A DNA stretch of 64,000 nucleotides from NCBI RefSeq assembly GCF_048403405.1, contig NZ_CP183129.1. One strand, 5' to 3'. Shown in pieces: positions 57,001 to 63,000 of the stretch (position 1 is the stretch's first letter; each line of letters starts with the position of its first letter). The position numbers are program-made. This stretch comes from Escherichia coli (GTDB lineage Bacteria; Pseudomonadota; Gammaproteobacteria; Enterobacterales; Enterobacteriaceae).

Positions 57001-60000
57001 GTATCTGGCTCGTTGCCGGCGTTACTGATATGCGTAAATCCTTCAACGGTCTGGGGGAGCAGATACAGCATGTGCTGGATGATAACCCCTTCTCCGGTCA
57101 CCTGTTTATCTTCCGTGGCCGACGGGGAGACACGATTAAAATCCTGTGGGCTGATGCTGATGGTCTGTGCCTGTTCACCAAACGCCTTGAGGAAGGTCAG
57201 TTTATCTGGCCTGCGGTGCGTGACGGTAAGATATCCATTACCCGCTCGCAACTGGCAATGCTCCTCGATAAGCTGGACTGGCGTCAGCCAAAAACATCCC
57301 GCCTTAACGCACTGACAATGTTGTAAAAAACTCCTGACCGCATTATAAAAACGGCCATGAGTCAGAAATACCTCATTCGCATCGCTGAGCTGGAAAGGCT
57401 GCTCTCTGAGCAGGCTGAAGCCCTCCGTCAGAAAGACCAGCAACTGAGTCTGGTTGAAGAGACGGAGGCCTTCCTGCGCTCTGCACTGGCACGTGCCGAA
57501 GAAAAGATCGAAGAAGATGAACGGGAAATAGAGCATCTGCGGGCTCAGATAGAAAAACTGCGCCGGATGCTGTTCGGAACCCGTTCTGAAAAACTGCGTC
57601 GTGAGGTTGAACAGGCTGAAGCCCTGCTGAAACAACGCGAGCAGGAAAGCGATCGTTACAGTGGGCGTGAGGATGACCCGCTGGTTCCCCGCCAGTTGCG
57701 ACAGTCACGCCATCGTCGTCCGTTACCGGCATATCTCCCCCGTGAAATATACCGCCTGGAGCCTGAAGAAAGCTGTTGCCCGGAGTGTGGCGGTGAGCTG
57801 GATTATCTGGGGGAAGTCAGCGCAGAACAACTGGAACTGGTGAGCAGCGCCCTGAAAGTGATCCGCACAGAACGGGTAAAAAAAGCCTGTACAAAATGTG
57901 ACTGCATCGTTGAAGCACCGGCACCATCCCGTCCGATAGAGCGTGGTATCGCGGGCCCGGGGTTACTTGCCCGCGTGTTAACGGGAAAATACTGCGAACA
58001 CCTGCCACTGTATCGTCAGAGTGAAATCTTTGCCCGCCAGGGTGTCGAACTGAGCCGTGCCTTACTCTCCAACTGGGTTGATGCGTGCTGCCAGTTAATG
58101 ACTCCGCTGAATGATGCCCTGTACAGTTATGTGATGAACACCCGCAAGGTTCACACTGATGACACACCAGTAAAAGTACTGGCACCGGGCAGGAAGAAGG
58201 CGAAAACAGGATATATCTGGACGTATGTCCGGGATGACCGGAATGCCGGTTCGCCAGAACCTCCGGCGGTCTGGTTCGCCTACTCACCGGACCATCAGGG
58301 TAAACATCCGGAGCAACACCTTCGTCCCTTCCGGGGTATCCTGCAGGCAGATGCGTTCGCAGGTTACGATCGGCTGTTCAGTGCCGAACGTGAAGGCGGC
58401 GCGTTGACGGAAGCAGGATGCTGGGCTCATGCGCGGCGCAAAATCCACGATGTATATATCAGTACTAAAAGCGCGACGGCGGAAGAAGCACTGAAACTAA
58501 TCGGCGAACTGTACGCCATTGAGCACGAAATACGCGGGTTGCCGGTGTCTGAACGCCTGGCGGTCAGGCAAATGCAGAGTAAACCGCTACTGACTTCCCT
58601 GTATAAGCTGATGCAGGAGAAAGAACACACGTTATCGAAAAAATGCCGTCTGAGAGATGCGTTCCGGTATATCAGGAAGCACTGGGTTGCGTTGTGCAAC
58701 TTCTGTGATGACGGTCTGGCGGAGGCGGACAATAACACAGCGGAAAGAGCGCTTCGTGCAGTCTGTCTCGGAAAGAAAAATTCGTGTTCTTCGGTAGCGA
58801 TCACGGCGGCGAGCGTGGTGCACTGTTGTACGGGCTGATCGGCACCTGCCGGTTGAATGGTATCGATCCGGAAGCGTATCTGCGCCATATCCTGAGCGTA
58901 CTGCCGGAATGGCCTTCCAACCGAGTTGACGAACTCCTGCCATGGAACGTAGTACTCACTAATAAATAAGCGTCAATACGGTGCTCCGTTGACGCTTACA
59001 CGCACCTGCTTTTCCAGCTCACGAATACATTGCTGCTCTGATGTGAATGGTGCTGCAGAAGGCGTGATCTCCTGACGTTCCCGTCTGAGCTGACATACCC
59101 ATGCCTCCAGAGTAGAGAAACCAACATTCATAGCTTCAGTAGCTTCCCGGTATGAGTAACCTTTATCAACGATAAGTTGGGCGCATTCCAGATTAAACTC
59201 AGGAGAGAAGGTACGCTTTGTTTTCTTGTTGTTTTATGTTGTGGTGAGAATATCACTAGACTGGCCCCCTGAATCTCCAGACAACCAGTATCACTTAAAT
59301 AAGTGATAGTCTTAATACTAGTTTTTAGACTAGTCATTGGAGAACAGATGATTGATGTCTTAGGACCGGAGAAACGCAGACGGCGTACTACACAGGAAAA
59401 GATCGCTATTGTTCAGCAGAGCTTTGAACCGGGAATGACGGTCTCCCTTGTTGCCCGGCAACATGGTGTGGCAGCCAGCCAGTTATTTCTCTGGCGCAAG
59501 CAATACCAGGAGGGAAGTCTTAGTGCTGTGGCCGCAGGAGAACAGGTCGTTCCTGCCTCTGAACTTGCTGCTGCCATGAAGCAGATTAAAGAACTCCAGC
59601 GCCTGCTCGGTAAAAAACGATGGAAAATGAACTCCTTAAAGAAGCCGTTGAATATGGGCGTGCAAAAAAGTGGATAGCGCACGTGCCCTTATTGCCCGGG
59701 GATGGGGAGTAAGCTTAGTCAGCCGTTGTCTCCGGGTGTCGCGTGCGCAGTTGCACGTCATTCTCAGACGAACCGATGACTGGATGGATGGCCGCCGCAG
59801 TCGTCACACTGATGATACGGATGTGCTTCTCCGTATATACCATGTTATCGGAGAGCTGCCCACGTATGGTTATCGTCGGGTATGGGCGCTGCTTCGCAGA
59901 CAGGCCGAACTTGATGGTATGCCTGCGATCAATGCCAAACGTGTTTACCGGATCATGCGCCAGAATGCGCTGTTGCTTGAGCGAAAAACCGCTGTACCGC

Positions 60001-63000
60001 CATCGAAACGGGCACATACTGGCAAAGTGGCCGTGAAAGAAAGCAATCAGCGATGGTGCTCTGACGGGTTCGAGTTCCGCTGTGATAACGGAGAAAAACT
60101 GCGAGTCACGTTCGCGCTGGACTGCTGTGACCGTGAGGCACTGCACTGGGCGGTCACTACGGGCGGCTTCGACAGTGAAACAGTACAGGACGTCATGCTG
60201 GGAGCGGTGGAACGCCGCTTCGGCAACGAGCTTCCGGCGTCTCCAGTAGAGTGGCTGACGGATAATGGTTCATGCTACCGGGCTAATGAAACACGCCAGT
60301 TCGCCCGGATGTTGGGACTTGAACCGAAGAACACGGCGGTGCGGAGTCCGGAGAGTAACGGCATAGCAGAGAGCTTCGTGAAAACGATAAAGCGTGACTA
60401 CATAAGTATCATACCCAAACCAGACGGGTTAACGGCAGCAAAGAACCTTGCAGAGGCGTTCGAGCATTATAACGAATGGCATCCGCATAGTGCGTTGGGT
60501 TATCGCTCGCCACGGGAATATCTGCGGCAGCGGGCCTGTAATGGGTTAAGTGATAACAGATGTCTGGAAATATAGGGGCAAATCCATTGTCAGCGCCAAC
60601 AATGTGGGCTGACATGATAAAGCTGTCTAGGAAATCGTTCGCCTCCTCAGCGGACAATCCAAATGGTGATTGTCTCTGTTAAACGTTTATTTTGAAGGTC
60701 GACTGAATAAGGTGATGACGCTGTAGAATTTTTCACGTGCCACAGAATTTTGAACGCTTTCTCTTACAATATTTCAATGTTTCTATCAGTATTCGCCGGA
60801 AGAAGTCATCGACCAAATCATCCCAGTCGTCTCGCACCACTGACCATTCATGGTTGACATGTGGTGGAAATCCGCTTCTACAGTAACCATTTTTTATTCG
60901 CAAAACCGAACACGCCATACGGATAGCTGTTAACTGGCATGCCGAGGCAGTCGTTATTTATATTTAGTTTTGTCAATAATCTTTATTTTTTGTAAAAGGT
61001 AAATATAAATTATTCTCATTATTGTTTGTATTTGTGTATTGTCTTGCCGGTTAACATGATCGGAGATTAGTAATATGCGAATAACCACTCTGGCTTCCGT
61101 AGTCATTCCCTGTCTCGGATTTTCAGCCAGCAGCATAGCTGCTGCAGAGGATGTGATGATTGTCTCGGCATCCGGCTATGAGAAAAAGCTGACTAACGCA
61201 GCCGCCAGTGTTTCTGTGATTAGCCAGGAGGAATTGCAGTCCAGCCAGTACCACGATCTGGCGGAGGCTCTGAGATCAGTAGAGGGTGTGGATGTTGAAA
61301 GTGGTACGGGTAAAACCGGTGGGCTGGAAATCAGCATCCGAGGAATGCCAGCCAGTTACACGCTGATACTGATTGATGGTGTTCGTCAGGGCGGAAGCAG
61401 TGACGTGACTCCCAACGGTTTTTCTGCCATGAATACCGGGTTCATGCCCCCTCTGGCCGCCATTGAGCGTATTGAGGTTATCAGGGGGCCGATGTCCACA
61501 CTGTATGGCTCTGATGCGATGGGCGGTGTGGTGAATATCATTACCAGAAAGAATGCAGACAAATGGCTCTCTTCCGTCAATGCAGGGCTGAATCTGCAGG
61601 AAAGCAACAAATGGGGTAACAGCAGCCAGTTTAATTTCTGGAGCAGTGGTCCCCTTGTGGATGATTCTGTCAGCCTGCAGGTACGCGGTAGCACACAACA
61701 GCGTCAGGGCTCATCGGTCACATCACTGAGCGATACAGCAGCCACGCGTATTCCTTATCCCACGGAGTCACAGAATTATAATCTTGGTGCACGTCTTGAC
61801 TGGAAGGCGTCGGAGCAGGATGTGCTCTGGTTTGATATGGATACCACCCGGCAGCGTTATGATAACCGGGATGGGCAACTGGGGAGTCTGACGGGGGGAT
61901 ATGACCGGACCCTGCGCTATGAGCGAAACAAAATTTCAGCTGGCTATGATCATACTTTCACCTTCGGAACATGGAAATCGTATCTGAACTGGAACGAGAC
62001 AGAAAATAAAGGTCGTGAGCTCGTACGCAGTGTACTGAAGCGCGACAAATGGGGGCTTGCCGGTCAGCCGCGGGAGCTTAAGGAATCGAACCTTATCCTG
62101 AATTCATTACTGCTTACCCCTCTGGGAGAATCTCATCTGGTTACGGTGGGGGGCGAGTTTCAGAGCTCGTCCATGAAAGACGGAGTTGTCCTTGCCAGCA
62201 CAGGTGAAACTTTCCGGCAGAAAAGCTGGTCGGTATTTGCTGAGGATGAGTGGCATCTCACGGATGCACTTGCGCTGACTGCGGGCAGCCGCTATGAACA
62301 TCATGAGCAATTCGGGGGACACTTCAGTCCGCGTGCATATCTGGTCTGGGATGTGGCAGATGCCTGGACGCTGAAAGGCGGTGTGACCACGGGATATAAG
62401 GCACCCAGAATGGGGCAGCTACATAAAGGGATTAGTGGTGTATCCGGGCAGGGAAAAACAAATCTACTTGGTAACCCCAACCTGAAGCCGGAAGAGAGCG
62501 TCAGTTATGAGGCTGGGGTGTATTACGATAACCCCGCCGGTCTGAATGCCAATGTCACAGGTTTTATGACTGACTTCTCCAACAAGATTGTCTCTTATTC
62601 CATAAATGATAACACCAATAGCTATGTAAACAGCGGAAAGGCCCGGTTGCATGGTGTGGAATTTGCCGGCACATTGCCGCTGTGGTCAGAGGATGTCACG
62701 CTGTCACTGAATTACACCTGGACCCGAAGTGAACAACGTGATGGTGATAACAAAGGTGCGCCGCTGAGTTATACCCCTGAACACATGGTGAATGCGAAAC
62801 TGAACTGGCAGATCACCGAAGAGGTGGCATCATGGCTGGGTGCCCGTTATCGCGGGAAAACACCACGTTTCACCCAGAATTATTCGTCACTGAGCGCTGT
62901 ACAGAAGAAAGTGTATGATGAGAAAGGAGAATACCTGAAAGCCTGGACGGTGGTGGATGCAGGTCTGTCGTGGAAGATGACGGATGCCCTGACGCTGAAT

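Follow-up and report, generated by a model that had tools for sequence, protein, structure and literature searches.

A frameshift mutant of IS2 at a probable rearrangement seam upstream of iha in an Escherichia coli pheV island

Organization of the insertion sequence stack upstream of iha

We analyzed a 64,000-nucleotide stretch of Escherichia coli DNA (contig NZ_CP183129.1 of assembly GCF_048403405.1, hereafter the window), concentrating on a stack of insertion sequences (IS) that lies immediately upstream of iha, which encodes a siderophore receptor/adhesin. The sequence and the list of open reading frames (ORFs) place three transposable-element pieces end to end within positions 58500-61200, followed by iha itself (61075-63165, plus strand; ORF list and RefSeq), whose module has IS2 as its left boundary. 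From left to right, an IS66-family element ends at 58999, a fragment of an IS3-family element fills 59000-59256 and an IS2 with both termini occupies 59257-60586. A first reading of this DNA, referred to below as the original prediction, had described the IS66 end, an IS3-family orfA remnant and IS2 as stacked without host DNA between them, and alignments of all three components agree with this, as no non-IS DNA separates them. In RefSeq, the IS66 transposase is assigned to the ISEc43 family and marked frameshifted, 59000-59256 is an incomplete, frameshifted "transposase" pseudogene, the coding region of IS2 appears as "IS3 family transposase, frameshifted", and iha is annotated as well.

The 2.1 kb from 58800 to 60900 are 100% identical to positions 3451041-3453141 (minus strand) of CFT073 (NC_004431.1). 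All comparisons were made against a set of 5,426 complete E. coli genomes, 75 of which carry this segment at a coverage of at least 80%; among the matches listed, CFT073 included, 30 of 30 show 100% identity. The nearest islands to that of the window are of the ATCC 25922 type, with 2 mismatches in 9,461 bp. CFT073 has an ISEc10 (IS21-like) insertion downstream of iha, after window position 63766 (from 12968 onwards in the CFT073 comparison locus L001), which is missing from the window and likewise from ATCC 25922, M16807, C25 and GN02323. The window therefore stems from a CFT073-like strain and not from CFT073.

IS2 is complete at both ends but lacks a target duplication

The ends of IS2 were set by aligning positions 59240-60610 to IS2A of K-12 MG1655, a copy of 1331 bp with the duplication ATTAC on both sides. 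This alignment places the window IS2 at 59257-60586 on the plus strand, with intact termini (TAGACTGG... and ...CAAATCCA) that form a terminal inverted repeat. The left inverted repeat (IRL, TAGACTGGCCCC...) and the right inverted repeat (IRR, ...GGGGCAAATCCA) are identical to those of K-12 IS2A. The original prediction of a full IS2 at 59257-60587 was thus right as to the left end, whereas the right end moves to 60586 and the length to 1330 instead of 1331 bp. Over the whole element, the two copies differ in 42 of 1331 alignment columns, one 1-nt gap included (96.8% identity), and they share the gene order, i.e., insC/orfA followed by insD/orfB in the -1 frame, as well as the A6G slip window. 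The length of 1330 bp is a mutation within a member of IS2 and not evidence against its membership.

Unlike K-12 IS2A, the window copy has no ATTAC-type duplication. Its 5-bp flanks are ATCAC on the left (59252-59256) and TTGTC on the right (60587-60591), so that their reported lack of identity persists after exact definition of the ends, and no target duplication of any length was found around the window IS2.

A one-base deletion disrupts insC

A further difference from K-12 IS2A is a 1-nt deletion after codon 90 of insC (orfA; 59348-59677, plus strand). According to the ORF list and its translation, insC is disrupted: after 90 native codons, it runs out of frame for 19 codons and then stops. 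The NCBIfam model "IS2 repressor TnpA" (PRK09413) scores 203.8 bits on the window insC, below its cut-off of 229, and intact InsC/OrfA has 121 aa. The deletion lies in an A6 run at 59612-59617 (plus strand; GGTAAAAAACG), which is 7 nt long in both references, namely GGCAAGAAAACG in K-12 (reading AAGAAAA) and GGCAAAAAAACG in ST131 EC958 (A7). The earlier suspicion that insC has A6 where its frame needs A7 is therefore correct in substance, one base being absent relative to both references, and the National Center for Biotechnology Information (NCBI) annotation pipeline (PGAP/RefSeq) labels the IS2 coding sequence "frameshifted". This lesion is separate from the A6G window of programmed -1 frameshifting (gcAAAAAAg; 59664-59670, plus strand), which is identical to that of K-12 and EC958; the slip window and OrfAB of IS2 have been described (PMC3219604). 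The downstream gene insD (orfB; 59670-60575, plus strand) is open over 301 aa and matches NCBIfam "IS2 transposase TnpB" with 711.5 bits against a cut-off of 597. Its frame is conserved, and the IS2 overlap of orfA and orfB in the -1 frame is kept together with A6G.

We regard the frameshift as real and, judging from the reading frames, would not expect the OrfAB transposase to be made. Ribosomes translating the window insC would reach A6G in the +1 frame, and a -1 slip at this point would therefore restore the old orfA frame rather than lead into orfB, giving no OrfAB. As both of its ends are intact, the window IS2 could presumably still move if, and only if, an IS2 transposase were provided in trans. 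In many carriers, e.g., ATCC 25922, the chromosome has no other IS2-homologous place than the window-type IS2.

At least 60 genome records are identical to the window over 59540-59700, including the A6 run. An A7 run on the window IS2 haplotype occurs in one record only, ECO_1_S, at the same locus. We considered this record as an intact version of the haplotype and rejected it, since it also has an extra G at 60342, a second 1-nt insertion, and the A7 is probably indel noise.

The left flank is a remnant of a dead ISEc31-like element

The DNA that abuts IS2 on the left (59000-59256, minus strand, 257 bp) is the 5' fragment of an ISEc31-like IS3-family element, extending from nucleotide 37 of the element to about codon 78 of orfA. 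AHB29 has a longer copy of this IS3-family element, to which the whole fragment is homologous, and the fragment shows about 74% nucleotide identity to ISEc31-family elements, with which its OrfA is collinear, in more than 2,000 genomes. The fragment gives a weak NCBIfam IS3 match (E = 1e-4), and the longer AHB29 OrfA matches Pfam HTH_Tnp_1 (PF01527) with 50.1 bits.

The orfA reading frame of the fragment spans 59000-59233 and is preceded by a TAA. Alignment with ISEc31 of O55:H7 CB9615 and with the AHB29 and A24 copies revealed a 13-bp deletion relative to ISEc31 (AGGTGACTTAATG) that took out the ribosome-binding site and the ATG, which is why the orfA start is missing. This accounts for the absent start in the original prediction of a start-less IS3-family orfA fragment at 59000-59240; the IS3-family homology covers 59000-59256. 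The 13-bp deletion is common to the window, AHB29 and A24, and the ISEc31-like element must therefore have been dead before the arrival of IS2. The IS3-type IRL (TGTAGTGG..., beginning TG) of the AHB29 and A24 copies is identical to that of ISEc31, and the 36-nt IRL tip (TGTAGTGGCACAGTAAATTTGGCCACCTGATTAAAG) is identical in all three and absent from the window. Also absent are orfB, with its DDE core, and the right inverted repeat, as the fragment stops at 59000 against the IS66 end. Thus, unlike ISEc31, the window has a piece of the 5' part from nucleotide 37 only, with the start codon deleted and neither orfB nor a right end; 59000-59256 is an IS3-family remnant and not a complete member.

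The two flanks of IS2 continue into unrelated DNA in other genomes

We then followed each flank of IS2 into related islands. Beyond the equivalent of 59256, the left flank leads in A24 and AHB29 into the 36-bp IRL tip and from there into another integrase fragment, in islands beside pap/sfa. On the right, EDL933, O104:H4 and O113:H21 carry the DNA upstream of iha without IS2, and leftwards from the equivalent of 60587 they run into unrelated DNA (...CCTTAGTA|TTGTCAGCG). As the flanks continue into unrelated contexts in relatives, the two sides were never contiguous.

The segment upstream of iha is present in 1,395 of the 5,426 genomes. The IS2|iha junction is found in 675 genomes and uninterrupted DNA of the type seen in Shiga toxin-producing E. 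coli (STEC) in 695, and the two classes are nearly complementary. To the left of IS2, a nan-esterase|IS2 junction, seen in EC958 and Nissle 1917, occurs in 562 genomes and the CFT073-type junction in 75, which together cover nearly all of the junction-bearing genomes and leave roughly 38 with neither left context. Two parental junctions were sought, one joining the STEC-type left flank, TTGTC and the IRL of IS2, and the other joining the IRR of IS2, ATCAC and the ISEc31-like IRL tip; each was found in 0 of 5,426 genomes, and the ancestral state was not recovered.

Since the flanks come from different places and the IS2-bearing and uninterrupted classes are near-complementary, IS2 marks a rearrangement seam. 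We conclude with high confidence that the locus is such a seam and not the product of a simple insertion, and that its IS2 is a frameshift mutant. The original prediction had favored an IS2-mediated deletion or rearrangement over simple insertion; the unrelated flanks and the missing parental junctions agree with a rearrangement, whereas "IS2-mediated", if taken to mean catalyzed by the transposase, goes too far, as recombination of the RecA type between copies of IS2 is an equally good fit.

A second island architecture shares the right junction but not the IS2 sequence

An IS2 also lies upstream of iha in the GI-pheV islands of ST131 EC958 and Nissle 1917, with its right junction (...CAAATCCA|TTGTCAGCG) at the same base and in the same orientation, and there is no target duplication there either (GTGGT in EC958 versus TTGTC). 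In contrast to the window copy, however, the EC958/Nissle 1917 copy is intact, 1331 bp long and annotated with "programmed frameshift", and it differs from the window IS2 at 52-53 positions. Its left flank is also different, being the nan sialate-esterase side (window position 41363) instead of the ISEc31-like fragment. In both EC958 and Nissle 1917, the shiF-iuc-iutA-sat block (window 41362-56372; 3377-20892 in the EC958 comparison locus L013) is inverted and located on the opposite side of iha. Identity to EC958 is 97.2% over the aerobactin-sat block and 99.7-99.8% over the nan and iha modules, and these unequal values imply that the modules of the island have different histories.

Between the two IS2 copies at the shared junction, 53 of 1331 positions are different (3.98%), spread evenly between position 32 and a point 27 bp short of the right end, versus 10 of 3414 positions (0.29%) in the adjoining right flank (Fisher p = 1.5e-20). 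Comparison of the window, EC958, WP7 and K-12 copies made no mosaic breakpoint visible inside IS2, the variant sites being interleaved, and only two IS2 haplotype classes were seen at the IS2|iha junction. As a single crossover would leave a mosaic and none is visible, at least one lineage must have had its whole IS2 replaced or converted, unless the junction was formed twice. The simplest reading of the haplotype contrast is whole-element replacement by homologous exchange. It seems unlikely to us that 60586/60587 is instead a recurrent docking site for IS2, or that IS2 and the iha segment form a portable unit, with targeted insertion or replacement at an IS end or palindrome taking the place of conversion.

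Origin of the seam

We propose that two modules of a CFT073-type pheV pathogenicity island, an island well known from uropathogenic E. coli, meet at this locus in a fossil seam, with the iha module on one side, and we consider this highly probable. IS2 would lie exactly on the seam, bounded on the left by the inside of an already dead ISEc31-like element and on the right by the iha-upstream DNA that is uninterrupted in STEC islands. A junction made by a rearrangement using IS2 would for that reason have no 5-bp duplication. The likeliest route, to which we would give roughly an even chance, is that IS2 copies at different sites, each with its own flank, recombined homologously or underwent conversion, which would include replacement of the whole element. 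In a later step, a 1-nt contraction of the A-run in insC would have shifted the frame after codon 90, with the loss of OrfAB, and the sole-IS2 status of this copy in many carriers would freeze the junction. Several points weigh against this proposal. A parental junction with either flank duplicated is found in none of the 5,426 genomes, and the order and number of events are our reconstruction. A single crossover between the two IS2 types should produce a mosaic IS2, which is not visible, so that whole-element conversion or several events would be needed, and the proposed loss of transposase function is deduced from reading frames.

The strongest alternative, plausible although we put it at clearly less than an even chance, is a rearrangement catalyzed by the transposase, in which an active IS2, a tandem (IS2)2 or a circle junction attacks the same or another molecule and gives rise to an adjacent deletion, an inversion or a replicon fusion. 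A pathway of this kind, via figure-of-eight and minicircle junctions, has been described for the IS3 family (PMC3219604, PMC3299598), and it would account for the fact that no base is missing from the IS2 termini at either junction in either architecture, as well as for an IS2 without a visible mosaic. However, precise ends are equally expected from homologous recombination inside IS2, and the window copy now appears to be transposase-defective. Furthermore, the window contains neither a reciprocal product nor a second, inverted IS2 copy, and transposase action alone leaves the presence of two 4%-divergent IS2 variants at an identical right junction unexplained. The locus as it stands fits either homologous IS2-IS2 recombination or a transposase-driven event.

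Two independent arrivals of IS2 at the same nucleotide upstream of iha, which would make this position a target hot spot, would also explain why the IS2 variants differ by 4% over their full length and the adjoining 3.4 kb by 0.3%. The insertion point is located one base before a palindrome with a 7-bp stem (TGTCAGC...GCTGACA) and 7 bp from the remnant of an old IS3-family end, which would also speak for a hot spot. We nevertheless regard such a double arrival as improbable, as IS2 would twice have had to enter at one site in one orientation with the left flank being lost. In addition, no genome shows a simple insertion at this position, only two IS2 haplotype classes were seen there, and whole-element conversion is simpler. 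A simple insertion of IS2 with later decay of its 5-bp duplication through point mutations, for which the presence of a full-length IS2 and nothing more can be cited, is refuted by flanks that run into unrelated sequences in IS2-free relatives and by the 0 of 5,426 parental junctions, ATCAC and TTGTC being no more identical than expected by chance. An assembly or sequencing artefact, i.e., collapsed repeats or a homopolymer error giving A6, may be suspected because the lesion lies in a homopolymer and the A7 of ECO_1_S, with its other 1-nt insertion, resembles indel noise, but is likewise refuted by the occurrence of the arrangement and of A6 in no fewer than 60 independent records of complete genomes, among them several independent assemblies of CFT073 and ATCC 25922.

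Relation to the published structure of pheV islands

According to a published account, GI-pheV is a set of modules with insertion sequences between them, whatever their orientation and location (PMC11537424). The locus analyzed here conforms to this picture of the GI-pheV/PAI-CFT073-pheV mosaic, as it is a seam between that account's shiF_iucABCD_iutA_sat module and iha, and the order and orientation of modules differ between CFT073-type and EC958-type islands as published there. Compared with that account, as far as it was consulted, the base-level junctions, the frameshift in IS2 and the haplotype difference between IS2 copies at the shared junction are added by the present analysis. All of the components are already known, being members or remnants of described families (IS2, the ISEc31-like IS3 family and IS66/ISEc43) at a locus that RefSeq annotates; what the junction analysis and the contrast between IS2 haplotypes add to this is small.

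The locus records the assembly and reshuffling of pheV islands in extraintestinal pathogenic E. coli (ExPEC) at insertion sequence seams. This matters little in itself and does not imply a new element, mechanism or function. The IS2|iha junction, its two left contexts and the A6 frameshift are nevertheless exact markers, which could be used to type islands as CFT073/ATCC 25922-type or ST131/Nissle-type.

The DNA between IS2 and iha

A further IS3-family remnant lies just to the right of IS2, a 56-bp right end (60594-60649, plus strand) that comprises the last orfB codons (RQQCGLT*) and the IRR and is 88-89% identical to an element of EC958 (about 21060-22710 in locus L013). It is found upstream of iha in every ExPEC and STEC context compared, including EDL933, O104:H4 and O113:H21, and its presence in STEC loci makes it older than the IS2 event. 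We also considered whether the STEC iha-upstream DNA is a degenerate copy of the element that left this remnant; the match is confined to the 56 bp, with no protein-level similarity further upstream, and the idea was rejected. In a few genomes (H123-H127), similarity to the iha-upstream DNA starts at 60697, 60719 and 60804 (query starts 111, 133 and 218), which suggests that this DNA was truncated, or received insertions, independently in further cases.

The 488 bp upstream of iha, together with a proximal Fur-box-like site, are common to IS2-free islands, and an effect of IS2 on iha expression is therefore unlikely. The Fur-box-like sequence (61005-61023; 13/19 matches to GATAATGATAATCATTATC) is located about 50-70 bp upstream of the iha start and well downstream of IS2. 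Matches of such quality number about 26 in the whole window, which makes this one weak evidence, and a promoter scan upstream of iha returned weak consensus matches only. RefSeq also annotates a 60-aa "hypothetical protein" on the minus strand (60954-61136) that overlaps the iha start. The reading frame has an internal stop in EC958 and Nissle 1917, and it is probably not a real gene.

The IS66-family element on the left of the stack

The IS66-family element (56460-58999, plus strand; ISEc43 family according to PGAP) was delimited by NCBIfam matches to TnpA, TnpB and TnpC, by the pairing of its inverted repeats and by alignment with EC958. It consists of an IRL at 56460, the second in this region, tnpA (56542-56979), tnpB (56976-57326), a frameshifted tnpC (57357-58969) and an IRR that ends at 58999 (...GACGCTTAC), all on the plus strand. 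The predicted right end at 58999 was confirmed in A24, where the right end of a related IS66 stops at the equivalent base. The tnpA-tnpB-tnpC organization and the GTAAGCG... termini, found as inverted repeats, are those of the ISEc43/IS66 family. Unlike other members, however, the window copy has a tnpC that is broken by a frameshift into two overlapping ORFs (57357-58838 and 58784-58969; "frameshifted" in RefSeq), shows no 8-bp duplication and abuts an extra IS66 left-end fragment of 87 bp. This copy, too, is probably non-autonomous. Neither candidate left end shows the 8-bp target duplication, as GGATTGTC and GACACCTG each differ from ACGCACCT. A simple insertion of IS66 into the ISEc31-like element was rejected, as the rest of that element is not present beyond IS66.

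The extra left-end fragment (56373-56459, plus strand) starts with GTAAGCGTAAAC and matches, at 100% identity, the left end plus leader of an IS66 copy in EC958. It is also an exact inverted copy of window positions 31747-31833, where another IS66-family element, about 24.5 kb upstream, has its left end. The DNA to the left of 56373 belongs to the end of the sat module, which is common to EC958, and the sequence shared by the window and EC958 stops at 56372. The inverted IS66 ends at 31747-31833 and 56373-56459 bracket the nan and shiF-iuc-iutA-sat modules (31834-56372) and are a possible substrate for inversion of the modules. In the CFT073-type island of ECO_1_S (3048-4181 in locus L019), an ISEc45 element (IS110 family) is inserted in the ISEc43-like tnpC and forms an extra layer of the pile-up.

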